From a virus (Duplodnaviria > Caudoviricetes), in the IMG/VR virus record IMGVR_UViG_3300037400_002591, positions 1 to 64,000 of that record: a DNA stretch of 64,000 bases. One strand, given 5' to 3'. The position numbers and the translations under genes were made by a program. Below are positions 42,917 through 58,611 of this stretch, piece after piece. Within the stretch, counting starts at the first letter, position 1. The number at the start of each line of letters is the position of its first letter. The notes beneath the pieces were generated by a model. The model was given only the letters and a program-made list of their open reading frames with translations. It had not been told where the DNA came from and searched no databases.

Positions 42917-42972
42917 AAGAAGTAGACAGCAAAAGACTGTATCTAATATAATCATTTGTGAACCGCTTCTTG
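42917..42972 (+). ncRNA. stem+ACAGCAA small RNA, copy 1
   Basis: AAGAAGT-AG-ACAGCAA...GCTTCTT-G. Confidence 0.55.
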
Positions 42973-43373
42973 TGTTTTATGAAAGATAAGGCTAAAGATA
43001 AAAAGAAGCTCTGAAGATAGAAAGGTCTATCATATTTATGATTTTTATTGAGGCTCCGTTAAGTGATTTCACACTTTGGATAGTTTATATATTCCTCAAC
43101 AATATATAGATTAGAAAGATGGTCGGAAAATCAATAGAAAAAGTAAATAAAATGCGGGGATCGCCGTCCGTCAGAATGGAATTTTATCTCTTATTGGAAG
43201 TAAAAATGAGAATAAAGAATGAGCTGCGGTAGCCTGCCTAGTGGCTACAACAATCTGGACATGCGGATTGAAGAGCGACGACCGCGCAATTAAATTATAT
43301 TAAAGAGGTAGTAAAAATTACCTTTATAGATAATAAAATAAGCCTCTTTTCTTAATTCTATGGGAGTGATAAT

Positions 43374-43730
43374 ATGAAAGTAGTAAAGTGGATACATCCA
43401 AATGAATTAGATGAACAAAAAGAAGTTTACTATTGCGGATTTGGACGTAGTTATATAAATAAATATATAAAAGCAGATTATGATGAAAATTATGAAGATG
43501 CTATAATAAAAGAATTAGTAGATAATCAATATATTATATGTGGTGATACTCATCAATATATGTGTTTGCCCGTTTTTGAAGATGATGAATATGTAATGTT
43601 ATCAATGAGAAAATGGGGAGAAGTTATGGCAAAAGCAATGAATTTGATTGAAGGTTTAAATAAATATCAATATACAGATTTTTATTTAGTAAGTCTATGT
43701 AAAAAAGAAGAAAAGTTGCCTATTAAGTAA
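43374..43730 (+). CDS. hypothetical protein
   Basis: ORF with RBS. Confidence 0.6.
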   Translation: MKVVKWIHPNELDEQKEVYYCGFGRSYINKYIKADYDENYEDAIIKELVDNQYIICGDTHQYMCLPVFEDDEYVMLSMRKWGEVMAKAMNLIEGLNKYQYTDFYLVSLCKKEEKLPIK

Positions 43731-43787
43731 TGCTATTGATTATTTTTAAAAAATATAATATAATATAAATGTAATAAAGAAAGGGAA

Positions 43788-44099
43788 GTGATATTAATGG
43801 AAGTTTTTTTAAGTATGAATAGATATATTTATAATAAATTATTAGAAGAATATCCTAATTGTATAGACATTAGAGAAAATGTTGAAAATTATGAATGGAT
43901 GGTAGAGCAAGATGGAAATAAATATATAGGATATTTTGATAATTTAGATACATTTGATAAAATGATTTCAAATATCTTTCCTAATATAAAATATATTGCA
44001 GAAATAAATCATAGTGATAAAGATATTGAAATTAAAAATATAGATTATTCAGCAGATATTCATGGAGATGGAACGATTGGAAAAAGGAGAGTGAATTAA
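43788..44099 (+). CDS. hypothetical protein
   Basis: ORF after promoter-like AT tract. Confidence 0.55.
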   Translation: MILMEVFLSMNRYIYNKLLEEYPNCIDIRENVENYEWMVEQDGNKYIGYFDNLDTFDKMISNIFPNIKYIAEINHSDKDIEIKNIDYSADIHGDGTIGKRRVN

Positions 44100-44101
44100 A
44101 A

Positions 44102-44320
44102 ATGGCTAAAAGAAAAGGTAAGTCAGGTAGCGGAGAAGGGCATTTTATAATTACCCAAGCAAACCTAGATAAAAAAGGAAAAACTAATAAGAAATTAAAA
44201 AGAAATCCTATGGCTTCTAAGTATTTAACTGTAAAAGGTAGAGAATTAAAAGACGCAGGAGAAGCAGCATATAAAGAAAATATGACTAAGCATAGAGAAA
44301 GAATGAAACAAGCCTCATAA
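44102..44320 (+). CDS. basic hypothetical protein
   Basis: ORF with GGAG RBS. Confidence 0.55.
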   Translation: MAKRKGKSGSGEGHFIITQANLDKKGKTNKKLKRNPMASKYLTVKGRELKDAGEAAYKENMTKHRERMKQAS

Positions 44321-44326
44321 TAGGAG

Positions 44327-44557
44327 GTGAGTTTTATGGCTATGCATAAAGCGATTAAAAGTGGAAAAGAACATAGAGTAGAATATGGTACAAAAGGACA
44401 ACCATATTGTAAGGCTGTTGATAAGACTTGCAGAAATCATGGCGGAAGAAGTGGTGGTGCTGCGAATCAATGTCTGTGGTGTTTAGGCAATAGAATAAAT
44501 AAATATAAAAATATGGACAAAATAGCCAAAAAAGAGATTAGAGATTTTCAAAGATAA
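44327..44557 (+). CDS. small Cys/His hypothetical protein
   Basis: CRNHGG..CLWC. Confidence 0.6.
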   Translation: MSFMAMHKAIKSGKEHRVEYGTKGQPYCKAVDKTCRNHGGRSGGAANQCLWCLGNRINKYKNMDKIAKKEIRDFQR

Positions 44558-44629
44558 ATACATAAGGTGGTTGGTCAGAGCCGTGTGCAGAAAGCACCTT
44601 TATAAAAACGGGGTCACGGCATTATATAT

Positions 44630-44706
44630 CGCGGGGTGGACCAGTGGTCTAAGTCGTCAGGCTCATAACCTGAAGGTCGTAGGTTCGAATCCTACTCCCG
44701 CAACCA
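44630..44706 (+). tRNA. initiator tRNA-fMet(CAT)
   Basis: C1:A72 mismatch, TCAGG-CTCATAA-CCTGA, CCA. Confidence 0.92.
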
Positions 44707-44986
44707 TTGATTATTAGAGGCGGACAAGGCTTTGGCAGGTGAAACAGACTGGTGGGACGCGAGTGGCCTCTTCTTATATATGTTCTGTACTCGAAACCTA
44801 GGGAGTATATTAGTAAGGCGGGAGGTTAATTCCTCCCCGCAGAACACCGATTTAAAAAATATTTGATTTTTATAAAAAAATATAATATAATATATATAGA
44901 AAAGTTAAGAAAAAATAACTTTTGGGTAAAAATAGTAAAATTACCTACCATACTTTTCTAATAATAATAGAAAAGGAGAAAATATT

Positions 44987-45397
44987 ATGGAAACAAAAAT
45001 ATGCACAAAATGTGGTAGAGAATTACCATTAGATATGTTTAATTGAAGAAATAAAGAAAAAGGGACAAGAAGAGCTGATTGTAAAGAATGTCATTCTGGT
45101 TATATGAGAAAAAAATATCAAGAAAATAAAGATATTATTGCAGATATGAAAGCTAGTCAAGGATGTGCAAAATGCGGAGATACAAGAAGCTATGTTCTAG
45201 ATTACCATCATATTGACCCTAATACAAAAGTAGAAGGAATTGCAAGAATGGTTAGTAATCATTATACTTCTTTAAATGAAGAAACCCTTAAAGAAATTAA
45301 AAAATGTGTTGTTTTATGTGCAAATTGTCATAGAGAATGGCATTATTTAAAAGAAAGAAATAATGAATTAGCATTTGAAGATTACATCAATAGTTAA
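44987..45397 (+). CDS. HNH endonuclease with Zn ribbons (1 TGA-Trp)
   Basis: CTKCG..CKEC; CAKCG..LDYHH..LCANCHREWH. Confidence 0.85.
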
Positions 45398-45406
45398 TTC
45401 TTATAT

Positions 45407-45481
45407 TGCCGGGTGGTGAAGCGGTAACACAAACGGCTTTGAACCGTTCACGCGTTGGTTCGAATCCAACCCCGGCAGCCA
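45407..45481 (+). tRNA. tRNA-Gln(TTG)
   Basis: Cloverleaf, AACGG-CTTTGAA-CCGTT, CCA. Confidence 0.92.
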
Positions 45482-45582
45482 TTTAGTTAATTATTGGGAT
45501 ACTGCGGTGGTGATGTTCTAACCCATTTAAAAAAGTAACATAAAACCAGCCGAGCAGCAGGTGCATAAATGCTGTGTCTTAT

Positions 45583-45658
45583 GGGGAGTTAGCTCAGCTG
45601 GGAGAGCACCTGACCTGCAATCAGGAGGTCACGAGTTCGATCCTCGTACTCTCCACCA
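45583..45658 (+). tRNA. tRNA-Ala(TGC), C instead of U at position 33
   Basis: G3:U70 pair, CCTGA-CCTGCAA-TCAGG. Confidence 0.9.
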
Positions 45659-45758
45659 TTTAGATTATTATTGGTAATCTTGGGTAGTAGTAGATTTTAA
45701 ATGTTATTAAAGAGATAATTGAAAGATATTATATTCCATTAACAGCCATTTTATATAT

Positions 45759-45823
45759 GTCATAATAGTTTAATAAAAGAACGCCGTTTATCGGAAATGT
45801 GAGTGAAAGTCTCGCTTATGGCT
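45759..45823 (+). ncRNA. degenerate tRNA-like RNA with shortened anticodon arm
   Basis: GTCATAA/TTATGGC acceptor, D arm, CCG-TTTAT-CGG, GTGAG-TGAAAGT-CTCGC. Confidence 0.5.
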
Positions 45824-45959
45824 ACCTATATCACAAACCTTCCTATTACAATGTGATTATGCGGGCTTCAAAGCTCGCTATGCGGGAATCGGCTTGTTAA
45901 TCCTCAATCGAGGTATAAAGCTGTAGTCACCGATTCCCGCATAGGGGGTTTTGAAAAAT

Positions 45960-46382
45960 GGGGATGTTTAGGTTTCGACAGGAGTTGGCGAAAAGTTAGA
46001 ATACAAGTACTAGGCAGTTAGTTAAAAGGCAACAAATAAAAATAAACGGAAACTTATTTTCAAAAATTACTAATAAAGTTAAATCTTTATTCGCATTTAA
46101 TTGCGTAGCCTTCGCGTAAGGTTAAGTAACTTCTATGTTAAGTACCAGTAGCGGACAGGGAAACGCATAGTCGTATTAATGATTCAAGGACCGCCATTAT
46201 AGGTCAGCTATCTATGCCAGCCGCCTTTAATGACTTACTTATTTGCATAGACTTGCTCTTGAGATTTGTATATGGTAAAGAGTATAGATAGAACGGTATA
46301 CACAAAACTTGTAAGGTAAGAATGAGATTTCTAATTAGTAGTTGATTTTTGGACGCGGGTTCGAACCCCGCCATCTCCACCA
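45960..46382 (+). ncRNA. ssrA: tmRNA; tag (A)GNLFSKITNKVKSLFAFNCVAFA at 46048-46119
   Basis: GGGGATG..GGTTTCGAC 5' end; GACGCGGGTTCGAACCCCGCCATCTCCACCA 3' end; G3:U70; ATAAAC upstream of resume codon. Confidence 0.93.
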
Positions 46383-46385
46383 TAT

Positions 46386-46944
46386 GCAGGTGTAACTCAG
46401 TTGGTTAGAGTACTCGTCTGATTTCACAAACTATTATTGTTGGCTATTAAGATTATGTTAAATTCAAAACAAATAGGAAATATAACTGAATTAGAATGTA
46501 TGTTAGCATTTGTAAAATTAGGTTATAATGTATTAACTCCATACGGAGATTGCGAAAGATATGACTTTATAGCTGATGTAAATGGAAAGCTATTAAAAAT
46601 ACAAGTAAAAACATCTAGACCTTCTAGAACTAGTGAGGGCAGTATAGTATTTAATACTTCAAGTCAAACTACAAAAGAAGGAAAAATGGTTCATCATTCT
46701 TATGATGAAACACAGATAGATTACTTTATGACTTTTTATGATAACCAAGCTTATTTAATTCCTGTTAAGGAATGTAGTGTAAGAGAAAAAACTTTAAGAT
46801 TTGAGCCCCCAAAAAATGGACAAATCAAAGGAATAACTTTTGCACAAGAATATGAGCTAGAAAAGGTGGTGAATAAAATAGTCAACATATAGCATTGTAA
46901 AATCACGCGTGATGTCGGAGGTTCGAATCCTCCCACCCGCACCA
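46386..46944 (+). tRNA. tRNA-Ile(GAT) interrupted between positions 36/37 by a 482-nt insert (46423-46904)
   Basis: 5' half 46386-46422 ends CT-GAT; 3' half 46905-46944 AC-GCGTG-ATGTC-T arm-CACCCGC-ACCA. Confidence 0.8.
46455..46892 (+). CDS. PD-(D/E)XK endonuclease (group-I-intron-associated / I-Ssp6803I-like family)
   Basis: IGNITE..C..YDFIAD..KIQVKTS..IDYF...YLIP. Confidence 0.85.
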   Translation: MLNSKQIGNITELECMLAFVKLGYNVLTPYGDCERYDFIADVNGKLLKIQVKTSRPSRTSEGSIVFNTSSQTTKEGKMVHHSYDETQIDYFMTFYDNQAYLIPVKECSVREKTLRFEPPKNGQIKGITFAQEYELEKVVNKIVNI

Positions 46945-47179
46945 TAATTTGAATATTAGGTTAGCTTTTGTGACTATTAGTTAACATATATAGAGTAACT
47001 AAATTCCTAGTGAGTCAAAGTGGAATCGGTTCAATATCTAGTTAATATTGATTGGGTTGCACGAGCCTCAAGGGTAAGTACCAGTCGTGCTAGGGTGGTG
47101 AAATGCAAGAATCATGAGTTGCAGAGTAAGAAGCCGAACATTTAGGCGGGGATTACATTGAATAAAACCCGCTCCATAT

Positions 47180-47254
47180 ACGCTTGTAGTCTAATGGTTA
47201 GGGCGCACGGCTTATATCCGTGTTATCGGGGTTCAAATCCCTGCGAGCGTACCA
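47180..47254 (+). tRNA. tRNA-Ile(TAT)
   Basis: CACGG-CTTATAT-CCGTG, A73, CCA. Confidence 0.85.
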
Positions 47255-47434
47255 ATTAATGATATTTTAATTATTTTCAAAGAGTTTTTCATTTTATTCT
47301 CTGCGTCAAAAATAAAATGCTTCCTTCTTTCTAGAGCAGGTTATCTGGTGTAAATACGCATAGCTCTTTTATATACATTTTTGTTGATTTTATTTAAAAA
47401 ATATAATATAATAATAATGTAATAAAAAAGGAAA

Positions 47435-47860
47435 GTGATAAATATGGAAGAATTTTTTAAAAAAGAATATGATAATTTTGATAGTTATGAATATCATTTT
47501 GTGGACAAAGTTTTAAAAGAAATATTTGGCAAAAGACAAATGATAAAAAGATATTCGTTAGCAGGAGAAGGAATATTTAATCTCCTATATATAGATAATT
47601 ACATTTATGAATTTAGATTTAAAAAAATTAAATCTTTACCTGTTAGTGATGGTAAAAAAGCATTTAGAGATGCTAAAAAAGATGAGATTATTGATGCGGT
47701 TGCCGCAACATTAAGTAAATATAATTTAGATTTTGCTATCACAGGTGGAAAATTCATATCTTTTAAAGATAGAAACTATTTAATTCAAATAGAGATAGTT
47801 AAAAAAATAAAAGAGCCATCTAATCTTGGAAAAGTTAAAATAGATGGAGAATGGATATAA
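47435..47860 (+). CDS. hypothetical protein
   Basis: ORF after TTGATT/TATAAT promoter. Confidence 0.6.
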   Translation: MINMEEFFKKEYDNFDSYEYHFVDKVLKEIFGKRQMIKRYSLAGEGIFNLLYIDNYIYEFRFKKIKSLPVSDGKKAFRDAKKDEIIDAVAATLSKYNLDFAITGGKFISFKDRNYLIQIEIVKKIKEPSNLGKVKIDGEWI

Positions 47861-47868
47861 AAAATTAA

Positions 47869-47897
47869 TTGATTTTTTATAAAAATAATGATATAAT
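47869..47897 (+). promoter_or_regulatory. sigmaA-type promoter upstream of small RNA copy 2
   Basis: TTGATT-17-TATAAT. Confidence 0.75.
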
Positions 47898-47914
47898 AAA
47901 TATGTAAAATAAAT

Positions 47915-47997
47915 AAGGCATACACAGCAAAGTTTTTGGTAAATAATTAGGTCTGCAAATCCCGATTTAGATGGTTCAATCCCATTGCTATGCCTTG
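47915..47997 (+). ncRNA. stem+ACAGCAA small RNA, copy 2, with tRNA-Cys-like interior
   Basis: AAGGCAT-AC-ACAGCAA..TGGTAAA..CTGCAAA..ATGG-TTCAATC-CCAT-TGCT-ATGCCTT-G. Confidence 0.65.
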
Positions 47998-48019
47998 TAT
48001 AAAAAGAATAAAAAGTTTA

Positions 48020-48516
48020 ATATAGTGAGGGCTGTGTCACTCACACCAAGTTATAGTTTTACTGGTAGATAGACCACACCGTTTAGTGAGGCTTGGGCGT
48101 AAGAAACCTCACCGCCGCTATGGTGAAAGAGATAGATGGTTGCTTAGCTATTGCTTATCCATAACTGAAGGAATAGTAAAAACTAATACTACTTAATTAG
48201 TAGTATTCTAATAATATACAAAAGAAGAGAGGTAAAAGGTAGAGATTATTCAATAGTGATATGACTAAAATAAACTCCTTGGATAGGGTGAGACATATCT
48301 CAACAGACCCGAAAAAACCTTTATATTATTAGAATAGTGCTAATTAAGCATGATACTTACTGCTCAAGAAGTAGATAAGTCCTATTACAGAGAAATCTGT
48401 AAATGTTAGCTCATTGACCAAGTGTTGAAGGAGCGGAGATTACACAAAATGCGTATTCATATAGGTGAATGGCAGGACGAAACCACCTAAAAGTCATTTA
48501 TAAAGCATTCGTCCAT
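48020..48516 (+). ncRNA. large structured ncRNA candidate (ROOL-like size and context)
   Basis: ~500 nt without a credible ORF; helices GTGAGG/CCTCAC, AATACTACT/AGTAGTATT, TACAGA-GAAA-TCTGTA; family not verified. Confidence 0.5.
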
Positions 48517-48523
48517 TTAATAT

Positions 48524-48599
<76 letters not shown>

Positions 48600-48602
48600 T
48601 AT

Positions 48603-48678
48603 GCGGAAGTAGCTCAATTGGTAGAGTTCCTGCCTTCCAAGCAGGCTGTTGCGGGTTCAAGCCCCGTCTTCCGCTCCA
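48603..48678 (+). tRNA. tRNA-Gly(TCC)
   Basis: CCTGC-CTTCCAA-GCAGG, U73, CCA. Confidence 0.93.
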
Positions 48679-48818
48679 TTTAAAATTATTGATAATATTT
48701 AAAAAATATTATATAATATATATGTAAATAAAAAAGACCATAATAAAATTCTTGTTGGTATCTCAGTGGCACAGAGAGTAAAGAGTGTTGATTGCTACAA
48801 CCGCCAATATATTATTAT

Positions 48819-48893
48819 GGCCGGTTCGTCAAGAGGTTAAGACACAACCCTTTCACGGTTGCATCGCGGGTTCGAATCCCGCACCGGCTACCA
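48819..48893 (+). tRNA. tRNA-Glu(TTC)
   Basis: CAACC-CTTTCAC-GGTTG, CCA. Confidence 0.92.
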
Positions 48894-48921
48894 TATATTT
48901 ATGAAAAGGAGCTGATTAATT

Positions 48922-49548
48922 TTGGCATACATTTATAAAATAATAAATAAGAAAAATAATAAAATTTATATTGGAAAGACAGAATTTAGTATTGAAAAGA
49001 GATGGCAGGAACATCTTAGAGATAGTAAAAAGAATTTAGATAGACCTCTTTACAGAGCAATGAATAAATATGGAATTGAAAATTTTGATATTGAACAAGT
49101 AGAAAAAACAGATAATCCAGTAGAAAGAGAACAATATTGGATTGAATATTATGGCTCTTTTAAATATGGATATAATGCAACAAAAGGCGGAGATGGCAGG
49201 TCATATTTAGATTATGATTTAGTAATTTCAACTTATAAAGAATTAAAAAATGCAACTGAAACTGCTAAAAAATTAGGAATTTATGAAGAAAGTGTCCGAA
49301 ATATTTTAAAAGCTCGTAATGAATATATTTATTCTAGTTCAGAGGTTAATCAAATGAAGTTAAGTCATATAATTAAACAATATAATTTGCAAGGGCAATA
49401 TATTCAAAGTTTTCCATCTGCAAGAGCAGCTGCGGAAAGCATAAAAGGGAAAAATTGTTCACACGGAGTTATTTCTCATATAACAGATGTGTGTAAAGGA
49501 ATACGAAAAACTGCATATAGTTTTATATGGAAATTTGAAGAAGAATAG
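48922..49548 (+). CDS. free-standing GIY-YIG homing endonuclease with NUMOD1-like tail
   Basis: YIYKI.N..IYIGKT..RW.EH..E..GYN.T.GG; QYNLQG..FPS...A. Confidence 0.88.
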   Translation: MAYIYKIINKKNNKIYIGKTEFSIEKRWQEHLRDSKKNLDRPLYRAMNKYGIENFDIEQVEKTDNPVEREQYWIEYYGSFKYGYNATKGGDGRSYLDYDLVISTYKELKNATETAKKLGIYEESVRNILKARNEYIYSSSEVNQMKLSHIIKQYNLQGQYIQSFPSARAAAESIKGKNCSHGVISHITDVCKGIRKTAYSFIWKFEEE

Positions 49549-49551
49549 CTA

Positions 49552-49660
49552 TTGAGTATGGCGGAATAGGTAGACGCTGTAAGTTAAGGAACGATTAGAA
49601 AGGCTCGGACAAAGTGTACATAAAACCTTTCATGTAAGGTGCAAATCCTTATTACTCAAT
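49552..49660 (+). ncRNA. tRNA-like RNA with intact acceptor/D/T arms and expanded non-canonical middle
   Basis: TTGAGTA/TACTCAA, TGGCGGAATAGGTAGACGC, GTAAGG-TGCAAAT-CCTTAT; no CCA. Confidence 0.6.
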
Positions 49661-49680
49661 TAATATATTTTAATATAAAT

Positions 49681-49741
49681 AAGACGCGAACAGCAAAGCA
49701 ATTATCACTTTTTTAGGGAAAAAGCAAGAGATTGCGTCTTG
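49681..49741 (+). ncRNA. stem+ACAGCAA small RNA, copy 3
   Basis: AAGACGC-GA-ACAGCAA..CTTTT-TTAGGGA-AAAAG..GCGTCTT-G. Confidence 0.65.
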
Positions 49742-49745
49742 ATTT

Positions 49746-49820
49746 GGTGCGTTGGTCCAACGGTTACGACGCTAGACTGTCACTCTAGCAACAGGAGTTC
49801 AACTCTCCTACGCACCGCCA
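49746..49820 (+). tRNA. tRNA-Asp(GTC)
   Basis: CTAGA-CTGTCAC-TCTAG, G73, CCA. Confidence 0.92.
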
Positions 49821-49839
49821 TTTAATATAATAAAAGGAA

Positions 49840-50544
49840 GTGAGTCAGGTGAATATAGTAATACCTTTTAGAAACACATGCGGGACTGACGAGCTTGATA
49901 TGTGTATCAAATTAATCAAAAAGAATTTAAAAATTAATTATGATAACATTTATATTATTGGGGATGAGGTTAATCAATTTAAAGACTCAGTTATTAATAT
50001 TGTTGTAAACGAACAAAAATATAATAAGTGGTTAGATAGCAACTTTTTAGTAAAAACTTATATTGAAACAATTGGAAATCCTTTTATTTTATTTAATGAC
50101 GATTTCTTTTTAACTGAAAATGTTGATACTATTCCTTGTTATTATTTTGATACTTTACAAAATAGGTCTTTAACAACTTATATTATCAACGAAAAAATAA
50201 ATAAACTTAGATTATCAACATATGGGCTAAATATTGACTCATTCTTAAAAAGATTTGGTAACTTTGAAAATTATGAAGTTCATATTCCTATGATAATAGA
50301 TTATCCAAGTGTTATGTATGAAGCTATTGAACAATGTAATATAAACGATTGTCCTGCTTTAAAAAGGACAATGTATATAAAATTATGTGAAGAAAAAAAT
50401 TTTTCTAACACAATAGTAGAAATCAAACACGATGTTAAATTTAATGAACCTTTAAGAGTAATGCAATACCCATTCTTTTCTCTAACTGATAGAGCAGAGT
50501 TTGATGTATTTAGAGATGCTCTTGAAGAAATAGCAAAACAATAA
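49840..50544 (+). CDS. hypothetical protein, glycosyltransferase-like
   Basis: IVIPFR..NIYIIGD..FILFNDDFF (DxD-like). Confidence 0.5.
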   Translation: MSQVNIVIPFRNTCGTDELDMCIKLIKKNLKINYDNIYIIGDEVNQFKDSVINIVVNEQKYNKWLDSNFLVKTYIETIGNPFILFNDDFFLTENVDTIPCYYFDTLQNRSLTTYIINEKINKLRLSTYGLNIDSFLKRFGNFENYEVHIPMIIDYPSVMYEAIEQCNINDCPALKRTMYIKLCEEKNFSNTIVEIKHDVKFNEPLRVMQYPFFSLTDRAEFDVFRDALEEIAKQ

Positions 50545-50548
50545 ATGT

Positions 50549-50644
50549 AGGGGCTTAGTGTAATGGTAGCACAGCGGTCTTCAAAACCGTAAAGACGGGT
50601 CTCCAAAACCCGGGGTGTGGGTTCGAGTCCTACAGCCCCTGCCA
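50549..50644 (+). tRNA. tRNA-Trp with two tandem anticodon arms (TCA then CCA)
   Basis: AGGGGCT..GCGGT-CTTCAAA-ACCGT-AAAGA-CGGGT-CTCCAAA-ACCCG-GGGT-GTGGG-TTCGAGT-CCTAC-AGCCCCT-G-CCA. Confidence 0.85.
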
Positions 50645-50649
50645 ATTTT

Positions 50650-50723
50650 AGGGGTGTCGTTCAATGGTAGGACTCTGGTCTCCAAAACCAGGTATCTGGG
50701 TTCAAATCCTAGCACCCCTGCCA
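50650..50723 (+). tRNA. tRNA-Trp(CCA)
   Basis: CTGGT-CTCCAAA-ACCAG, A1:U72, G73, CCA. Confidence 0.93.
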
Positions 50724-50758
50724 TTTAGATTATTAAGGCGTTGCCGCGAGGTGATATT

Positions 50759-51394: not shown

Positions 51395-51395
51395 A

Positions 51396-51424
51396 TTGAT
51401 TTTTTATAAAAATTATTATATAAT
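51396..51424 (+). promoter_or_regulatory. sigmaA-type promoter of large ncRNA candidate
   Basis: TTGATT-17-TATAAT. Confidence 0.75.
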
Positions 51425-51449
51425 ATATATGTAAACATTAAGAAATAAA

Positions 51450-52330
51450 TTAAATGTGGAAACGAATGTATCTCCGTTCTGTCTTGCTCTTTAAGAGTGA
51501 GGCGGGATGCTGAGCTAGGGAGCAAAGGCATTCCATCAGACCGTTTGTGGGTTGGGTCTGCGAAAAGTTCTTTGAAAATAAAATTATTTGTAACTCAAAT
51601 AAGGATAGGTTTCGTCCTAAGAGTGGACTCTTACACCACCTCAAAAGGGTAGGTCATTAGTGCGGAAGCACGAGGGAGAGTCGCTGTCGGAATAACAAGC
51701 ATAAGGTGCTATTGATTTCGTGGTTCATTTAACAATGTGAGAGTTGGCGTCTCAAACAGGTTAAACGGCTGAGCCTTGGCGGTTGAAATAAGAAAGCAAT
51801 AGGCAACTAGCATAAATCCGTTGTAGCAAATGGCAAGTAGAACCTTATATGTTGAAGGTAATCAATCCTTCCTATGCGGAAATGCCAGGTCGTCGGCCAA
51901 CGAACTGGTGCATAGTAGCTTTATACTTATTCATTATATTATTGAGATGTGCTGGAAGATGCATCTCTGCGGAAGCAAGGTTGGTGGTAACGTTGACCGG
52001 CCGCCGCATATACTAATAACAGTAGACGCTGTAAGTAGCTGTGGTCATAGCCTATGAAAAAAGGATAAAAAGTTGATAAACTTAAGTGAGCAGGCGAAAA
52101 TATAATGAGTATAAGGAAAGTTGTGTGCGATTGGGTGCGAGCTCCAATACGACCTTAGCCGGGCGTAACACAGGACGACTGTGTGGAGAAGTGAGCACTG
52201 GGTGGTTGAATCAGGTCAAACTGAGTATAACAATGTGGCATATGGGCATATAAGAAAACCACTATGAAAAAGATTTGGTGATTACAGACGATTAGATGAA
52301 TGGTCTGTCTTATAAACTCCAGTCTATGCT
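51450..52330 (+). ncRNA. giant structured ncRNA candidate (GOLLD-like size and context)
   Basis: ~880 nt, markedly more GC-rich than flanks, no credible ORF, own promoter, inside tRNA island; family not verified. Confidence 0.55.
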
Positions 52331-52467
52331 ATGTTTGTAGAGTATTGGTCTCTACCTTGTGACTGAATATGCGGTTATTCTGTTGGAAGACTTGTGGGTA
52401 TGCGAAATTCCCACCAAATAATTTTATTTTCAAGGAACTTTTTAGAACCTTGAAAGAGAGTGATAAT

Positions 52468-52797
52468 ATGGAAAATTTAAAATGGTATGTTTTAAATTAT
52501 GATTTTAATGGAAAAAAAATAGAAAATTTTAACATTTTTAGAAGTGTTAGATTTGTAGAAGGCGTTCAAGATTTATTAGAACATTATATTACTTTTGAAG
52601 ATTTTGTTGAAAAATTAGAAAGTGAACTTAGATATGCTTTCTGGAGTAAAAGAGAGTATGAAATATCAGTTAGTGATGCTTTTGAAACTGACTTAAATAA
52701 ATATGAAAAAATAGATGTATATTCTCAAGTTAAACCAAATGTGAGAATATTAGCAAAATATATAATAGACAACTATAACGATGGGCTAAGCTGCTAA
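52468..52797 (+). CDS. hypothetical protein
   Basis: RBS before MENLKWYV. Confidence 0.6.
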   Translation: MENLKWYVLNYDFNGKKIENFNIFRSVRFVEGVQDLLEHYITFEDFVEKLESELRYAFWSKREYEISVSDAFETDLNKYEKIDVYSQVKPNVRILAKYIIDNYNDGLSC

Positions 52798-53126
52798 GTG
52801 CCTAAACCTATCTAAAGTAGCGTTTATGAGGTCATTGCCAATAGGGCTGATAGGAGTCGCTATTAAGTGATGAACTCGTATATAAGCGGAAGAGATAAAA
52901 CTTTGTTATAAATAGTAGAAAATTCTCATATTATCGATCTCGAACTCTTCCGCTTATACACGAGGTCATCCTGATATCGAGATAAAATATCGTGTGCATC
53001 TAGTATTGGAATATGTTTAAAATGGGACACAAAGCATATTCGTTCTAATTTATTAACACAACTCGATTATATGTGCGTAATAAATTAACTAGATGCTATT
53101 TTTATAGAATAAAGGAGCTGATTATA

Positions 53127-53543
53127 ATGATTTTAAAATTAAATAAGTATTTAAAAGAATTAGGTATAGATGAACATAATTGGCTTTTTGATAAAGAAAC
53201 ACAAGAAATAGATGATAGATATAAACCTGATGAAGAAGGATTTGTAGATGCAGAACATTTTAATTTAGATTATTCATTAAGTTTATATATTTATTCACAA
53301 TTATGCTATTTCCGCGACCATTGTTTAGTAGGACATCCTGCTTATATGACTTTTGAACAATGGAAAGATATTATTGATAAAATGATTGAAGCATTTAAAC
53401 TTCAAATATTAGAAGATAATACTTGGGATAGATTTCAATATCCTAATGAGGCGGAAAGAGTTAAAGCAAGTAAAAACAGACAAAAAAAGATTAATTATGG
53501 TATGAGATTATTTATTAAATACTATAATCATCTTTGGTATTAA
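53127..53543 (+). CDS. hypothetical protein
   Basis: AAGGAG RBS before MILKLNK. Confidence 0.6.
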   Translation: MILKLNKYLKELGIDEHNWLFDKETQEIDDRYKPDEEGFVDAEHFNLDYSLSLYIYSQLCYFRDHCLVGHPAYMTFEQWKDIIDKMIEAFKLQILEDNTWDRFQYPNEAERVKASKNRQKKINYGMRLFIKYYNHLWY

Positions 53544-53547
53544 TTCT

Positions 53548-53638
53548 GCGAAGTTGGGTGAGTTGGCTTAAACCAGCAGTTTGCTAAACTGCCGATCGAG
53601 TTTTCGGTCCACTAGTTCGAATCTAGTACTTCGCGCCA
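53548..53638 (+). tRNA. tRNA-Ser(GCT)
   Basis: GCAGT-TTGCTAA-ACTGC, long variable arm, G73. Confidence 0.92.
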
Positions 53639-53639
53639 T

Positions 53640-53715
53640 GGGTCGTTAGCTCAGTTGGTAGAGCACAGCACTTTTAATGCTGGGGTCCAGAGTTCAAACC
53701 TCTGACGACCCACCA
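53640..53715 (+). tRNA. tRNA-Lys(TTT)
   Basis: CAGCA-CTTTTAA-TGCTG, CCA. Confidence 0.93.
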
Positions 53716-53718
53716 TAT

Positions 53719-53810
53719 GCCGCGATGGCAGAGCTTGGCTTATTGCACCTGACTTGAAATCAGGCGTACGTGCAAGCGTACCGAGGGTTCAAATCCTTCT
53801 CGCGGCGCCA
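53719..53810 (+). tRNA. tRNA-Ser(TGA)
   Basis: CCTGA-CTTGAAA-TCAGG, long variable arm. Confidence 0.92.
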
Positions 53811-53922
53811 TTTGATTATAACTTGCAAAAGATAGATTAGAGTAATTAACTAATTGAAAGCCACTACTCTCGGTTTCTTTTGCAAGATAATATAATATTA
53901 GAGAGTAGAGAGGAGAGTAAAT

Positions 53923-54339
53923 ATGGCATTATATAATGCAATACAAGGTAATTTAGGACTTGGTAAAGCAATAGAATATTTTACAAGTCAAAATATTCCT
54001 GTTGCTATTCCATTAAATGATACTCAAAAATATGATATTGTTGCTGATTTTGATGGAAAACTTCAAAAAATATCTATAAAAACAAGTAGGTATCAACCAA
54101 GAGAAAATGTTTTTGAAGTGATGTTAAAAAATACAGGTGGTAGTTCTGGAAATAATAAAATTAGATTATTTGACAATAATAATTGTGATTATATTTTTAT
54201 TTATACTGCTAATGAAGATTTATATTTAATTCCATCTAAAGAAATAACTGCAACAAATTCTATTTGTGTAGGAAATAAATATGTTGAATATAAAGTATTT
54301 ATAAAAACATTGTCAGATTTTGATGAAGAAGTCAGATAA
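53923..54339 (+). CDS. free-standing PD-(D/E)XK endonuclease (same family as 46455..46892)
   Basis: QGNLG..YDIVAD..KISIKTS..CDYIF..YLIP. Confidence 0.8.
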   Translation: MALYNAIQGNLGLGKAIEYFTSQNIPVAIPLNDTQKYDIVADFDGKLQKISIKTSRYQPRENVFEVMLKNTGGSSGNNKIRLFDNNNCDYIFIYTANEDLYLIPSKEITATNSICVGNKYVEYKVFIKTLSDFDEEVR

Positions 54340-54407
54340 TTTTATCTATTATTGATTTTAATAAAAATATATGATATAATAATTATATAATAAAGGAAGT
54401 GAATGAA

Positions 54408-54821
54408 ATGAGATTATGGCATACAAAATTAATTAAAGCATTACCAAATATGCATTTACAAGCACAATGGAGAGAACTATCTGCTATTGCAGGGGCTATT
54501 CAAAAGAATGGAACTCCAAATCATGTTTTGGTAAACTTTGTATTAGATTATGATTATGATAATTTTATTTCTTATGCTTATTATATAAGACAAGAAATGA
54601 CTAATAGGGGTATTAGAACTATGAATTCAGTATGGGAAAAGATTATTAGTTTAAAACCTGATTATACTATTTTACCTATTGAAGAAGTATATAAAGAAAA
54701 AATGGACAAACTATATTTAAAAATATGTTATTATAACCTATTTGAAAAATATATTTGTGGTATGTTTGATGATATTACTCCTATTAATGACGCTGTTAAA
54801 GATATGGTGGAATTAGTATAA
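54408..54821 (+). CDS. pyrimidine-dimer DNA glycosylase-like (DenV family) protein
   Basis: MRLWH..L...HLQAQWREL. Confidence 0.65.
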   Translation: MRLWHTKLIKALPNMHLQAQWRELSAIAGAIQKNGTPNHVLVNFVLDYDYDNFISYAYYIRQEMTNRGIRTMNSVWEKIISLKPDYTILPIEEVYKEKMDKLYLKICYYNLFEKYICGMFDDITPINDAVKDMVELV

Positions 54822-54881
54822 TGGTTAGTACGCGGGTTTGTGGCACCTGAGGTAGGGGTTCAATTCCCTTATTCCACCCCA
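54806..54881 (+). tRNA. tRNA-His(GTG)
   Basis: G-1:C73, CGGGT-TTGTGGC-ACCTG. Confidence 0.92.
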
Positions 54882-54882
54882 T

Positions 54883-54968
54883 GCGGGGTTAGCCGAATTG
54901 GTATAGGCACGAGTCTTAGAAACTCGCGGGTTCGCCCATTACAGGTTCAAGTCCTGTATCCCGCACCA
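54883..54968 (+). tRNA. tRNA-Leu(TAG)
   Basis: CGAGT-CTTAGAA-ACTCG, variable arm. Confidence 0.92.
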
Positions 54969-54976
54969 TTATATTT

Positions 54977-55052
54977 GGCTAGGTAGCTCAGTTGGTAGAG
55001 CATCAGACTGAAAATCTGAGTGTCGGCTGTTCAATCCAGCCCCTAGCCACCA
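54977..55052 (+). tRNA. tRNA-Phe(GAA)
   Basis: TCAGA-CTGAAAA-TCTGA. Confidence 0.93.
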
Positions 55053-55053
55053 T

Positions 55054-55140
55054 GCGGGAGTGGCGGAATGGTAGACGCAACGGACTTAAAATCCGTTGGG
55101 ACCTAGTCCCGTGAGGGTTCAAGTCCCTCTTCCCGCACCA
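55054..55140 (+). tRNA. tRNA-Leu(TAA)
   Basis: ACGGA-CTTAAAA-TCCGT, variable arm. Confidence 0.93.
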
Positions 55141-55191
55141 TTAAATTTGTTTTTAAAGTTTTTTATCTTTTTAGATTTTACAGAAAGGTAA

Positions 55192-56121
55192 ATGGGTATA
55201 TATATGAATACACATTGGCTTAAAGTATTTTTAGTTAGTTTATTGCTTACAATTTGTATAGTTGGAGGAATATTTCTAGCAATGCAAAAGACAAAAAGTA
55301 AAAATACAGCATTAGAATTACAAAATTTTGAGACAAAAATATTAGATGAACACAAACAAAAATTAACTGGACAGGGATATGAAGAAGTATCTTATGAATT
55401 AAATAAAATCATTCAAGAAATGCAAAAAAATAATATGGTATATAGACCATCAGTTAATTTAAACAACAGCATTAAAGATACAGTTATTAAAAAATATGAT
55501 TTTTATGCAACTTATTATAAAATTACAATAGATGATAAAGATTATATATTTAAAAATAAAGAAAAATGTGAAGAGTTCATTAATAATATTCAGCAATACA
55601 CTAGCCAAAAATATGAAATGACTACTGCAAGATTAATGGTGAATAAAGAAACATCTGATGAAGATTTAACAAATATAATTGCGGATAAAAAAGCAGCATA
55701 TGAAAAGGCTAAAGCAGAAGAAGAAGCTAGAAAAAAAGCTGAACAAGAAGCTGCTGCCGCAAAAAAGAGACAACAGCAACAGCAACAAAATGTTTCTCCT
55801 GCTACTTCAGGAAGCAAAGCCGAATATCAACAGTATGCTCATGATTTAGTAATTAACACATATGGATGGTCAGAACATGACTTCCAATGTTTAGTTAATT
55901 TATGGGAGAGAGAAAGCGGATGGAATCCAAATTCTCACAACAAGTCTTCAGGGGCTCATGGTATTCCACAATCTTTACCTGCTTCAAAAATGGCAAGTGA
56001 AGGTGCAGATTATTACACTAATGGATATACTCAAATTAGATGGGGATTAAAATATATCAAAGGAAGATATGGTTCACCAGCTAATGCATGGAGTCATTTC
56101 CAATCAAAAAATTGGTATTAG
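55192..56121 (+). CDS. membrane-anchored lytic transglycosylase (SLT/Rpf-like C-terminus)
   Basis: N-terminal TM; Ala/Gln linker; LWERESGWNP..SSGAHGIPQ..NGYTQI.WG..YI..RYGSP..AW. Confidence 0.85.
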   Translation: MGIYMNTHWLKVFLVSLLLTICIVGGIFLAMQKTKSKNTALELQNFETKILDEHKQKLTGQGYEEVSYELNKIIQEMQKNNMVYRPSVNLNNSIKDTVIKKYDFYATYYKITIDDKDYIFKNKEKCEEFINNIQQYTSQKYEMTTARLMVNKETSDEDLTNIIADKKAAYEKAKAEEEARKKAEQEAAAAKKRQQQQQQNVSPATSGSKAEYQQYAHDLVINTYGWSEHDFQCLVNLWERESGWNPNSHNKSSGAHGIPQSLPASKMASEGADYYTNGYTQIRWGLKYIKGRYGSPANAWSHFQSKNWY

Positions 56122-56128
56122 CCCAAGT

Positions 56129-56205
56129 GGCGGCGTAGCTCAGTTGGCTAGAGCATCCCGTTCATACCGGGAAGGTCGTAGGTTCGAGCCCTACCGCCGC
56201 TACCA
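56129..56205 (+). tRNA. elongator tRNA-Met(CAT)
   Basis: GGCGGCG acceptor, TCCCG-TTCATAC-CGGGA; Ile2 identity not excluded. Confidence 0.88.
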
Positions 56206-56210
56206 AATAT

Positions 56211-56283
56211 ATAGATATAGTTTAATAGTAAAACTACCGCTTGATACACGGTAATAGAAGTGCAATTCTTCTTATCTATGCCA
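56211..56283 (+). tRNA. atypical tRNA (GAT-centred loop, A1:U72, G73, CCA)
   Basis: ATAGATA/TATCTAT acceptor; TACCG-CTTGATACA-CGGTA; non-canonical TGCAATT T loop. Confidence 0.55.
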
Positions 56284-56565
56284 TTGAACTTTTATAACTA
56301 TTTTAAATCTAAGCGTAATCCGGTATGGAGCGATAAAGACCTAAGGGCGTGTCCTATGGTAACTTGGAGTAAAGTATTAAGTGAAAATCTTAATTGGGAT
56401 GTGGCTATTGAAGAAATAAGATAGCGATGGTAAATATTATAAAGGGGAAATGATATATATTTCTACAAGAATTGAAGGAAGGAACGCCTTTAGTTACAAG
56501 TGCGGTGAGGCGCAGACGGTATTAAAACACTGGTTGTGGAGATATTTGTTTAGAGATATATATTT

Positions 56566-56642
56566 GCGGGACTAGCTCAGTTGGTTAGAGCACTTGCCTT
56601 ACAAGCAAGGGGTCGGGAGTTCGAGCCTCTCGTCCCGCACCA
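56566..56642 (+). tRNA. tRNA-Val(TAC)
   Basis: CTTGC-CTTACAA-GCAAG. Confidence 0.93.
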
Positions 56643-56667
56643 TTTAATTTTGTTGAAGAAGGAAGAT

Positions 56668-56820
56668 ATGTATATGAAAAAGTCGTATTGTGAATTAGAA
56701 ATTTATGCTGAAAGAAGATATATCGCATATAGTTATAGTAAACACTATATAAAGGCACTTTATTGGCTTTTGAAATATAAATATTATAAAAAAAGACACG
56801 AACAGCAATTTAATAGTTAG
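56668..56820 (+). CDS. small hypothetical protein
   Basis: 50 aa; stop lies inside small RNA copy 4. Confidence 0.4.
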   Translation: MYMKKSYCELEIYAERRYIAYSYSKHYIKALYWLLKYKYYKKRHEQQFNS

Positions 56821-56867
56821 GATAGCGCCATTATCACCAATCTGCTAAATTGGAAAAATGTGTCTTG
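56793..56867 (+). ncRNA. stem+ACAGCAA small RNA, copy 4
   Basis: AAGACAC-GA-ACAGCAA..GATA-GCGCCAT-TATC..CCAAT-CTGCTAA-ATTGG..GTGTCTT-G. Confidence 0.65.
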
Positions 56868-56872
56868 AATAT

Positions 56873-56949
56873 CGGGGAGTAGCGTAACTTGGTATCGCAC
56901 TTGGTTTGGGACCAAGGGGTTGCAGGTTCAAATCCTGTCTCCCCGACCA
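56873..56949 (+). tRNA. tRNA-Pro(TGG)
   Basis: CTTGG-TTTGGGA-CCAAG. Confidence 0.93.
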
Positions 56950-56950
56950 T

Positions 56951-57026
56951 GCCTCAGTAGCTCAGTTGGTAGAGCAAGCGGCTGTTAACCGCTGGGTCGC
57001 ACGTTCAAGTCGTGCCTGAGGCGCCA
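56951..57026 (+). tRNA. tRNA-Asn(GTT)
   Basis: AGCGG-CTGTTAA-CCGCT, G73. Confidence 0.93.
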
Positions 57027-57101
57027 TTATTATTTTTTGGATAAAAATTAAAAAATAACTCATTACTATTTTGATATATAAATAGAAGGAGATGAGTTAA
57101 A

Positions 57102-57665
57102 ATGCCAAAAGCTTTAGATTTAACAAATAAAAAATTTGGAAAATTAACTGCAATCAAAAAATTACCTAGTAAAAAAGGAAAAACATATTGACTATGTCGT
57201 TGTGATTGTGGAGTTGAAAAAGAAGTTCAAACAGGTCATTTAACACATGGATTAATAACATCTTGTGGAGCAACAACTTGTAAAACTCAAATATTAAAAG
57301 AATATGAAAAGAAATGTTTAATTTGCAATAAAACATTTATTACTAATTATAATAACAGGTTATATTGTTATGAATGCAGTCCGTCTCAGAATAAGAATGA
57401 TGCTAGTTTATATCAAAAAACTAAAAAAAGAGCAATTAAACATCAATTAATTCTTTATAAAGGTGGGAAATGTGAAAAATGTGGATATAATAAATGCGAA
57501 GGAGCTTTGCAGTTTCATCATGTAAATCCACAAGAAAAAGATTTTACTATAGGTGAAATCAATATTAATAAAAACAATTTTCAAATGGAATTATTATATA
57601 AAGAAGTTGATAAATGTAAACTTTTATGTGCTAATTGTCATGCTGAAGAACATTTTGAAAATTAG
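57102..57665 (+). CDS. HNH homing endonuclease (1 TGA-Trp)
   Basis: DLTNKKFGKL..Y(W)LCRCDCG; CEKCGY..LQFHH..LLCANCHAEEH; missing from track. Confidence 0.85.
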
Positions 57666-57674
57666 TTTTTCTAT

Positions 57675-57750
57675 GTCCCGTTAGCATAACGGATAATGCA
57701 ATGACCTTCTAAGTCATCGATTTCAAGTTCGAATCTTGAACGGGACACCA
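57675..57750 (+). tRNA. tRNA-Arg(TCT)
   Basis: ATGAC-CTTCTAA-GTCAT. Confidence 0.92.
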
Positions 57751-57776
57751 TATTTAATAAATGTAGGAGGTAAGGT

Positions 57777-57986
57777 ATGGATAATATAAAAACAACTCCA
57801 ACTAAAAATCTAATTCATATCTTATGCGAAGCTACAGACCAAAACATAACCAATATAATTGCTTATGAATTAGCTTGCAGAATATATGTTCCAGATAATA
57901 ATCAAGGAGTAACATTTGAACAATTATTAAATGATTTTGGTTATAAAACAAAAGAAGAAGATATAAGACAATTAAAAAGAAAATAA
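57777..57986 (+). CDS. hypothetical protein
   Basis: GGAGG RBS. Confidence 0.6.
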   Translation: MDNIKTTPTKNLIHILCEATDQNITNIIAYELACRIYVPDNNQGVTFEQLLNDFGYKTKEEDIRQLKRK

Positions 57987-57992
57987 TTAAAT

Positions 57993-58079
57993 GGGCGGGC
58001 GCCGGAGTGGGAGAGCCGGGGCGGACTGTAAATCCGTTGACCTAGGTCTGAGGTGGTTCGAATCCACCGCCGCCCACCA
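57993..58079 (+). tRNA. tRNA-Tyr(GTA)
   Basis: GCGGA-CTGTAAA-TCCGT, variable arm. Confidence 0.92.
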
Positions 58080-58311
58080 TTAAATTAGATGGCACGTTAT
58101 TCTAGTCATCTGCAAATTATTGCTATTGAAATAATCTAGGACGATTTCATAAAAGTTTAGAGTGTAGACTAAGTGGTAATCAAGTCGCGATCATCCGATC
58201 GCCGCAAGATTAAAACGAAAGTGCAATTCTGGTAACGGAATGTTCTTAGCGAGGAAAACTTACTTGACCTAAGCTGCAATGTTATTTTTATTGAAAGCCA
58301 TCTAAAATTTT

Positions 58312-58340
58312 TTGACAAAGTGAAAAATTTTTGATATAAT
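58312..58340 (+). promoter_or_regulatory. consensus promoter of small RNA copy 5
   Basis: TTGACA-17-TATAAT. Confidence 0.85.
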
Positions 58341-58358
58341 ATAAATGTAAAATAAAGT

Positions 58359-58515
58359 TAGACAAGAGAACAGCAATTAGTTAATTAACAAACAGTTAGT
58401 GAATATTAAGTGGTACTAATAACAACTCTCTTGGAGAGCGTAGAAGGGAATATCTGTTATGGGATATTGGGGTATTCCTCTAACGAAAGCAATTTAGAAT
58501 ATTCTTCTTGTCTAG
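58359..58515 (+). ncRNA. stem+ACAGCAA small RNA, copy 5 (long form)
   Basis: TAGACAAGA-GA-ACAGCAA...TCTTGTCTA-G between its own promoter and terminator. Confidence 0.7.
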
Positions 58516-58564: not shown

Positions 58565-58607
58565 GCGGAAACCTTTAATTAATATATAGGGTTTCCGCGA
58601 TTTTTTT
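58565..58607 (+). terminator. intrinsic terminator
   Basis: GCGGAAACC/GGTTTCCGC + T run. Confidence 0.75.
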
Positions 58608-58611
58608 ATGC

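Follow-up and report, generated by a model that had tools for sequence, protein, structure and literature searches.

ACAGCAA-handled RNA elements of a phage tRNA array and a candidate Ro60-like protein partner

What are the five short, similarly built elements that are scattered through and just beyond the transfer RNA (tRNA) array of a phage-like contig? The stretch analysed here, referred to as the window, comprises positions 1 to 64,000 of the IMG/VR record IMGVR_UViG_3300037400_002591 (Caudoviricetes). It represents 64 kb of a 79-kb AT-rich contig in which many open reading frames (ORFs) are open only with TGA read as tryptophan. Between ~42.7 and 58.1 kb, all on the plus strand, it carries 26 tRNA genes and one transfer-messenger RNA (tmRNA), with small ORFs between them, several of which are homing-endonuclease-like. 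A sequence-only reading had picked out the five elements as small RNAs which combine a common protein-binding scaffold with interchangeable cargo. Our analysis finds them to be genuine: they belong to an RNA family that is widespread in phages and apparently undescribed. We further consider it probable that they partner a divergent phage Ro60 in the manner of Y RNAs, with a constant handle for docking and a tRNA-related cargo; their expression, binding and role are what we infer.

Five elements with a common handle

All five elements were found exactly where they had been reported, on the plus strand and with the stems, ACAGCAA motif and final G described for them (Table 1). The ends of each pair in a perfect Watson–Crick stem, 9 bp long in copy 5 and 7 bp in the others; after its 5′ strand come, in every copy, a 2-nt spacer and ACAGCAA, then 32–130 nt of interior, the closing strand and a G. 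The ACAGCAA motif alone is not over-represented, with nine matches in the window against 7.2 expected; five of these nine are closed by a perfect 7-mer, and the compound architecture of stem plus ACAGCAA is far beyond chance.

The same architecture is found in other viruses. IMG/VR was scanned with a pattern (AAGANNNGAACAGCAA, 30–60 nt, TCTTG) which left three stem positions free, and all three were complementary in 34 of 106 matches, against ~1.7 expected. As a negative control, bacterial and archaeal genomes were scanned with this pattern, and three of the 121 matches listed were complementary, which is the chance level; none of these three had a tRNA nearby. With complementarity in the listed cellular matches at chance level, the handle class is essentially viral. 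When the viral loci were rescanned for any ACAGCAA closed by a 7-mer, 93 distinct elements were recovered, several per locus and on the same strand as the surrounding tRNA arrays. In an offset control covering 311 distinct ACAGCAA occurrences in phage loci, a closing 7-mer was present at offset 2 in 64 cases, compared with 5–13 at offsets of 4–40 nt.

An alignment of 48 sequences showed double substitutions in all seven stem pairs, and RNAalifold returned the terminal helix only, with no other consensus helix and interiors that could not be aligned. The proposal of a common scaffold with interchangeable cargo is therefore supported, the terminal stem and ACAGCAA being all that the copies have in common. 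The consensus reads A-A-G-A-c-r-C, two free bases, ACAGCAA, the interior and G-y-g-U-C-U-U-G, with A or U 5′ of the stem. G-U pairs are tolerated in the stems, and ACAGCAA is present in 73 of 73 non-redundant members by selection, with the variants TCAGCAA and ACAGCGA found by means of a covariance model. Run on the full 79-kb contig, this model (R1), built from family members elsewhere and three window copies, returned exactly the five copies at E<0.005, and the match after them had E=0.66; it overlooked both copies of a Campylobacter phage, which were found by eye, hence its sensitivity to divergent stems is limited. In the relative L109, the orthologue of copy 4 carries a compensatory C-G to U-A change (AAGACAT/ATGTCTT) and the loop CTGTTAA. 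Covariation, which had been read from the five window stems, is thus borne out by the free stem positions, the offset control and this compensatory change, and a search of phage genomes, which the sequence-only reading had recommended along with a covariance model, located the family both in IMG/VR and in cultured phages.

These results bear on whether the elements act as DNA. Small inverted-repeat mobile elements, or target sites for recombination or an endonuclease, would have short terminal inverted repeats such as those seen here, and the array does contain GIY-YIG and PD-(D/E)XK homing-endonuclease genes. However, the repeats differ between copies with their pairing kept, which is a signature of RNA, and G-U pairs are tolerated; the elements always lie on the tRNA/gene strand, and they have neither target-site duplications nor conserved ends. 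A DNA-level explanation is in our estimation extremely unlikely.

The terminal stem had been called acceptor-like, and a perfect stem of 7–9 bp is indeed present, but the likeness amounts to resemblance: the first pair is A-U, the five elements have no CCA, unlike the neighbouring tRNA genes in which CCA is encoded, and both ARAGORN and the Rfam tRNA model pass over all five. Genes of tRNAs that have decayed or are unconventional, either pseudogenes or minimal armless tRNAs left in the array, would account for a 7-bp terminal stem with one unpaired 3′ base and for the tRNA-like spacing, as copy 3 stops 4 nt 5′ of tRNA-Asp and copy 4 stops 5 nt 5′ of tRNA-Pro, in the manner of adjacent tRNAs. 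The T-arm-like hairpin and anticodon-like loop of copy 2 would fit as well. Against this, the invariant ACAGCAA is not a tRNA feature, copies exist away from tRNAs, and decay would not leave, across phyla, a conserved motif and a covarying stem. We regard tRNA remnants as a very improbable origin.

Among named RNA families, the five elements had no match in Rfam at gathering threshold or at E<=5, in line with the sequence-only reading, which could assign them to none. Our literature search found no description of an ACAGCAA RNA family, nor of DUF2828 linked to phage RNAs. Ribozyme, retron non-coding RNA, K-turn and RNase P-substrate readings were set aside; only seven unpaired nucleotides are conserved. 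Neither a reverse transcriptase nor any other matching partner was present among the ORFs scanned at contig 41–73 kb.

Copies 2 and 5 had been placed directly behind consensus promoters, and both sites were confirmed as consensus matches (Table 1). The terminator claimed for copy 5 was also confirmed, as a terminator-like hairpin with a run of U residues which a simple terminator scan overlooked because its loop is 12 nt long. A further, bidirectional terminator-like hairpin (58622–58645) is situated between the copy 5 transcription unit and a convergent minus-strand ORF (58637–60010).

Table 1. Positions of the five elements, their putative transcription signals and associated genes (window coordinates unless marked as contig coordinates; R1, score with the covariance model)
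Feature	Coordinates	Strand	Details
Copy 1, 56 nt	42917..42972	+	AAGAAGT-AG-ACAGCAA ... GCTTCTT-G; R1 27.7 bits, E 3e-4
Copy 2, 83 nt	47915..47997	+	AAGGCAT-AC-ACAGCAA ... ATGCCTT-G; R1 28.2 bits
Copy 3, 61 nt	49681..49741	+	AAGACGC-GA-ACAGCAA ... GCGTCTT-G; R1 43.5 bits
Copy 4, 75 nt	56793..56867	+	AAGACAC-GA-ACAGCAA ... GTGTCTT-G; R1 48.1 bits
Copy 5, 157 nt	58359..58515	+	9-bp stem TAGACAAGA/TCTTGTCTA, GA, ACAGCAA, cargo, G; R1 partial match, 23.2 bits
Promoter-like site of copy 2	47869..47897	+	TTGATT-17-TATAAT, extended -10 TG; 10/12; 17 nt 5′ of copy 2; consensus match only
Sigma-70-type promoter match of copy 5	58312..58340	+	TTGACA-17-TATAAT with TG; 12/12 matches
Terminator-like hairpin of copy 5	58565..58609 (hairpin 58565–58598)	+	11-bp hairpin and U7 run, 50 nt 3′ of copy 5; z -5.1
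Candidate protein partner, 504 aa	60794..62308	+	DUF2828+DUF7788 (PF11443, Pfam); predicted Ro60 fold, a HEAT-repeat ring plus von Willebrand factor A (vWA) domain
HAD_SAK_2 gene	41097..41654	+	HAD domain of ‘Swiss Army Knife’ RNA-repair proteins; E 3.9e-22; upstream edge of array
Calcineurin-like metallophosphoesterase gene	63217..63921	+	Downstream of the Ro60-like gene
Thg1-like gene	contig 64061–64861		Just outside the window, after the metallophosphoesterase gene

A Ro60-like gene linked to the elements

Which protein might bind such a handle? The protein-binding part of the earlier proposal gains a specific candidate, a Ro60-fold DUF2828 protein whose gene adjoins the elements in unrelated cultured phages, with binding itself presumed. 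In the window this protein is encoded at 60794–62308, in an ORF with no internal TGA. A phmmer search with it against PDB sequences found no Ro60. The AlphaFold2 model, made from a 60-sequence alignment of diverse homologues, has a mean predicted local distance difference test score (pLDDT) of 92, and in a Foldseek search of the PDB its best 12 matches were all Ro60/Rsr/TROVE structures, full-length and including the Ro60 of phage phiLo, with E 7e-10 to 1yvr. Aligned to Xenopus Ro60 (1yvr) by VIA-align, the model gave a Z score of 20.7 and a root-mean-square deviation of 3.9 A over 418 residues, and matches to the vWA domain only end near Z 10. The residues of the MIDAS, the adhesion site that depends on a metal ion (D307, S309, S311, T378 and D410), show no variation among 60 diverse homologues. 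The protein is therefore predicted to fold as a Ro60 with an intact MIDAS.

Searches with tblastn placed the protein family in 704 phage records, with members in mycobacteriophages already annotated as ‘Ro-like RNA binding protein’; the usual annotation of the DUF2828 family in the phage collection is ‘RNA-binding’ or ‘hypothetical’. A single-protein search for related loci gave no viral relative, and the close relatives used here came from homologous proteins and their contigs. The relative with the copy 4 orthologue encodes a Ro60-like protein which is 83% identical to that of the window.

The RNAs and the gene occur together. PF11443 was detected in 11 of 15 RNA-positive viral contigs and in none of 10 contigs with chance pattern matches; the four RNA-positive contigs that were PF11443-negative are fragments of 54–90% completeness, three of which share RNA sequences with positives of the same sample. 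In a set of cultured phages (n = 13), each of the eight with a DUF2828 gene also carries ACAGCAA elements, on the gene's own strand, and in seven the nearest lies within ~350 nt. Upstream of the gene are the nearest of the three tandem copies in Listeria AG20 (74 nt), of the two in Campylobacter NCTC12673 (~22 nt, the pair found by eye), of the five in Bacillus Thrax1 (128 nt) and of the four in the Enterococcus EF1 locus (44 nt). Downstream of it are the nearest of the three copies in Staphylococcus SEP9 (20 nt), of the two in Mycobacterium phage Rumpelstiltskin (41 nt) and of the four ACAGCAA/TCAGCAA copies in Salmonella ST11 (Felixounavirus, 340 nt). The eighth, the Vibrio phage KVP40, has a single copy of the TCAGCAA variant 7 kb from the gene, in a tRNA array. 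No elements were present in the five cultured phages without the gene (T4, T5, Bxz1, LP65 and K), of which Bxz1 has a TROVE-type Ro protein; a single match in phage K (E 0.07) was rejected, as it contains no ACAGCAA. Neither SEP9 nor Rumpelstiltskin has a tRNA nearby (within 1.5 kb), hence the RNAs track the gene and not the tRNAs. Even the GC-rich genome of Rumpelstiltskin has an unaltered ACAGCAA.

In the window, copy 5 is 2.3 kb and copy 4 is 3.9 kb upstream of the Ro60-like gene, on the same strand, and copies 1–3 are at 11–18 kb. The minus-strand cassette between copy 5 and the gene varies in size among relatives.

Such positions could also be expected of cis-acting signals, either nuclease entry sites punctuating the tRNA operon or autoregulatory sites in the untranslated regions of the DUF2828 mRNA, as in seven cultured phages the elements lie in an untranslated flank of the gene, 5′ or 3′ of it, and in the window they stand between tRNAs. 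Yet copy 5 has its own perfect promoter and a terminator, with no ORF; several tandem copies with different cargos occur per locus, some of these cargos being complete tRNA-like domains; and elements are found both upstream and downstream of the gene, up to 18 kb off. A purely cis-acting role is in our view quite unlikely.

Cargo, proposed role and surroundings of the array

The cargo differs from copy to copy. Copy 1, 70 nt 3′ of tRNA-Cys, encloses a single hairpin. The cargo of copy 2 is tRNA-like, with an anticodon-loop-like CUGCAAA and a T-arm-like hairpin (GATGG-TTCAATC-CCATT), and pairing is possible between its AGCAA and TTGCT; the tRNA model gives no match to it. Copy 3 carries the hairpin CTTTT-TTAGGGA-AAAAG, with a 5-bp stem and a 7-nt loop, and copy 4 includes an anticodon-arm mimic, CCAAT-CTGCTAA-ATTGG. 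Copy 5 has a large, multi-hairpin cargo, with orthologues in the relatives L107 and L109.

Across the family, anticodon-arm-like hairpins, strictly defined as a 5-bp stem with a 7-nt loop Y-U-NNN-R-N, occur in 14 of the 73 members, including window copies 3 and 4, compared with 2.3 +/- 1.4 in shuffles; the anticodon-like loops include UUU, GUU, GCU and UGG. T-arm-like hairpins are present in six of 73, and in the window only in copy 2. Some members enclose a permuted tRNA-like domain made up of a T arm, a closed acceptor-like hairpin and a D arm. This domain matches positions 24–84 of the Rfam YrlA model, which is the core of the model only, with 32.3 bits and E 3.9e-5 in the best member, and the YrlA-like domains of ST11 and EF1 are similar. 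The member at L072 6403–6516 (minus strand) encloses a circularly permuted tRNA-like domain, and that at L076 430–550 a complete tRNA with CCA inside the handle. No family member reaches the RF02553 gathering threshold (69 bits), the five window copies have no YrlA match at E<=5, and the YrlA motif GNCGAA(N)G / CGAA is absent from the handle. Weak YrlA matches elsewhere in the window coincide with the T arms of ordinary tRNAs and were discounted. A constant stem joined to a variable, often tRNA-like module is therefore the design of a Y RNA.

A mechanism can be proposed from these observations. The RNAs would be transcribed with the tRNA array or, for copies 2 and 5, from their own promoters, and copies 3 and 4 may be released by processing of the neighbouring tRNAs. 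The constant handle, consisting of the 7–9 bp stem (AAGAC.C / G.GUCUU), 2 nt, a single-stranded ACAGCAA on the 5′ strand and an unpaired 3′ G, would form the docking site for the divergent Ro60 homologue. The swappable cargo, frequently imitating part of a tRNA, would then give the ring protein a tRNA-related specificity, perhaps by recruiting tRNA-directed enzymes of repair or decay, or by presenting tRNA parts as decoys for host nucleases.

The decoy function could also be thought of without the protein. Free-standing tRNA parts might act as a sink for the anticodon nucleases of the host or for other defences directed at tRNAs, with the handle only stabilising their ends and the Ro60-like protein a neighbour on the same counter-defence island. 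Such decoys would explain the enrichment of anticodon-arm-like hairpins, the change from CUGCUAA in copy 4 to CUGUUAA in its orthologue on the same stem, and the presence of elements within tRNA arrays that hold RNA-repair genes. However, a stabilising stem leaves an invariant single-stranded ACAGCAA across phages of three bacterial phyla unexplained, most cargos are not anticodon mimics, and elements lie 20–130 nt from the DUF2828 gene even with no tRNA near, hence we think free-standing decoys unlikely.

Several points weigh against the Ro60-partner reading. The 100% pairing in the alignment is partly circular, as sequences were selected for the stem, and the non-circular tests are the free positions in IMG/VR and the offset control. 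Clear anticodon-arm mimics make up only about a fifth of the cargos. In the window, 2.3 kb and three minus-strand ORFs separate the nearest copy from the gene, with the others at 4–18 kb, and the co-occurrence of RNAs and gene may partly reflect the shared ancestry of tRNA-rich phages, the control set being small. At E<=0.01, Pfam reports DUF2828 and DUF7788 in the candidate protein and no TROVE, and the established Ro-binding motif (GNCGAA / CGAA / GGUCCGA) is absent from the phage RNAs. Lastly, the Ro60-like gp130 of the Felixounavirus phage Bas63 counters the Ppl defence, and still does so alone, on a plasmid or in T7 (PhageMaP preprint, PMC11482910); therefore, at least the anti-Ppl activity needs no phage RNAs.

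Going beyond the Ro60-partner reading, we tentatively suggest, as a speculation considerably less likely to hold than to fail, that the handle is an address tag which loads any cargo RNA on the viral Ro60-like ring, and that phages evolve the cargo as cassettes (anticodon arms of particular tRNAs, T arms, whole or permuted tRNAs) to aim the particle at specific host immune systems that cleave or sense tRNAs, where it would be bait or else, together with Thg1, RtcB or phosphoesterases, a platform for repair. If true, phages of Gram-positive, Gram-negative and actinobacterial hosts would share a cargo-swappable ribonucleoprotein system of counter-defence.

RNA-repair-type genes flank the array (Table 1), and the gene order beyond the Ro60-like gene is kept in relatives. 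The genes that come after the Ro60-like gene of Listeria AG20 bear the annotations phosphohydrolase, tRNA-splicing ligase (RtcB), RNA ligase and phosphoesterase, an order which recalls the bacterial rsr-yrlBA-rtcBA operon (PMC7790460).

The array has further features of its own. Nuclease- or DNA-glycosylase-type ORFs occur among the tRNAs at 46401–46892, 48859–49548, 53923–54339 and 54399–54821, comprising two PD-(D/E)XK, a GIY-YIG+NUMOD1 and a Pyr_excise. A 143-nt stretch at 58149–58291, between tRNA-Tyr and the copy 5 promoter, matches positions 441–590 of the OLE RNA model (RF01071) with 84 bits, an unexpected find within a phage tRNA array; the fragment recurs in L109 (3602–3746, 85 bits) ~70 nt 5′ of the copy 5 orthologue and is absent from the closer relative L107. 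The phage's own tmRNA is at 45960–46382 (77 bits, with a tag peptide from ARAGORN), and tmRNAs are also found in the ACAGCAA-positive loci L019, L076, L093 and L097. ARAGORN called a 96-nt tRNA with anticodon UCA (‘SeC’) at 50549–50644, immediately 5′ of tRNA-Trp(CCA), which is probably the phage's UGA reader, as many ORFs need TGA as tryptophan. A tRNA-like stretch at 49560–49665, between the GIY-YIG ORF and copy 3, has a D-loop-like GGTAGA and a T-arm-like GGTGCAAATCC; it was called by neither ARAGORN nor Rfam and may be a disrupted or intron-bearing tRNA. In the arrays of L078, L029 and L104, several tRNA-model matches are 117–135 nt long, which suggests tRNA genes with insertions of ~45–60 nt. 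Two ORF-poor, GC-richer stretches (48020–48516 and 51450–52330) had no Rfam match to ROOL or GOLLD at E<=5, and a weak manA-like match was seen at 52336–52424 (E 0.9).

Comparison with known Ro60 and Y RNA systems

Ro60/Y-RNA particles are conserved from bacteria to humans, and what they do is still poorly understood; the phage examples described so far are all of the TROVE type, with CGAA-motif RNAs. The present family, which is not in Rfam and appears to be unpublished, would be a variant of this system. It would give the large DUF2828 family a concrete candidate RNA partner with a recognisable 16-nt handle, which could also be used as a simple rule for annotating phage genomes and might provide a scaffold for RNA display. 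Cultured phages of the Listeria A511 type, the Felix O1 type, SEP9 and the cluster L mycobacteriophages offer model systems, and the arrangement suggests that Ro60-like proteins, tRNA mimicry and phage counter-defence or RNA repair are linked.

The closest likeness in overall design is to the bacterial YrlA Y RNAs (RF02553), which share with the phage family a terminal stem formed from both ends, a short 5′-strand motif near the 5′ end and a modular interior, in the phage family often tRNA-mimicking, with several paralogues per genome placed close to and on the same strand as a Ro60-fold gene, and with RNA-repair genes adjoining. A same-strand Ro60 orthologue within ~4 kb, as is used to recognise YrlA RNAs, is present for copies 4 and 5 and, at 20–340 nt, in seven of the eight cultured phages. 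The phage motif differs, as ACAGCAA directly follows a 7-bp stem where YrlA has GNCGAA; most phage members are 55–70 nt long with a single hairpin as cargo, and the protein belongs to Pfam DUF2828/DUF7788 and not, as Rsr does, to TROVE. The 2014 survey which defined the motif GNCGAA(N)G searched only TROVE-annotated genomes (Chen et al., PMC4201824). Ro60 contacts mostly the 5′ strand of the motif near the Y RNA 5′ end (PMC4201824).

Metazoan Y RNAs are likewise bound by a vWA ring protein at a conserved site in the terminal stem, mostly on the 5′ strand, and have a variable loop that recruits other factors. Their site, however, is a GGUCCGA helix with a bulged C, their ends are the oligo-U of Pol III transcripts and their cargo is not a tRNA mimic.

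Among phages, the Thermus phage phiLo encodes two CGAA-motif RNAs (Yrl1/Yrl2) just upstream of its Ro60, with binding shown in vitro (PMC12135203; PDB 9KOP, 9L5Y). The window locus shares with it a phage Ro60-fold protein with small RNAs nearby, and the phiLo structure is one of those that the window protein matched in fold. In phiLo, by contrast, the RNAs have the canonical CGAA, the protein is a recognisable Ro60/TROVE homologue and there is no tRNA array.

The Bas63 gene for gp130 lies directly upstream of tRNA genes, and the authors speculated that some of these ‘tRNA genes’ are Y RNAs, without identifying the RNAs (PMC11482910). From genus and synteny we infer that gp130 is a DUF2828 orthologue; its arrangement is that of the DUF2828 gene of ST11, in which the four ACAGCAA/TCAGCAA elements stand among tRNA genes. 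The ACAGCAA elements would accordingly be the RNAs at which the Bas63 study could only guess.

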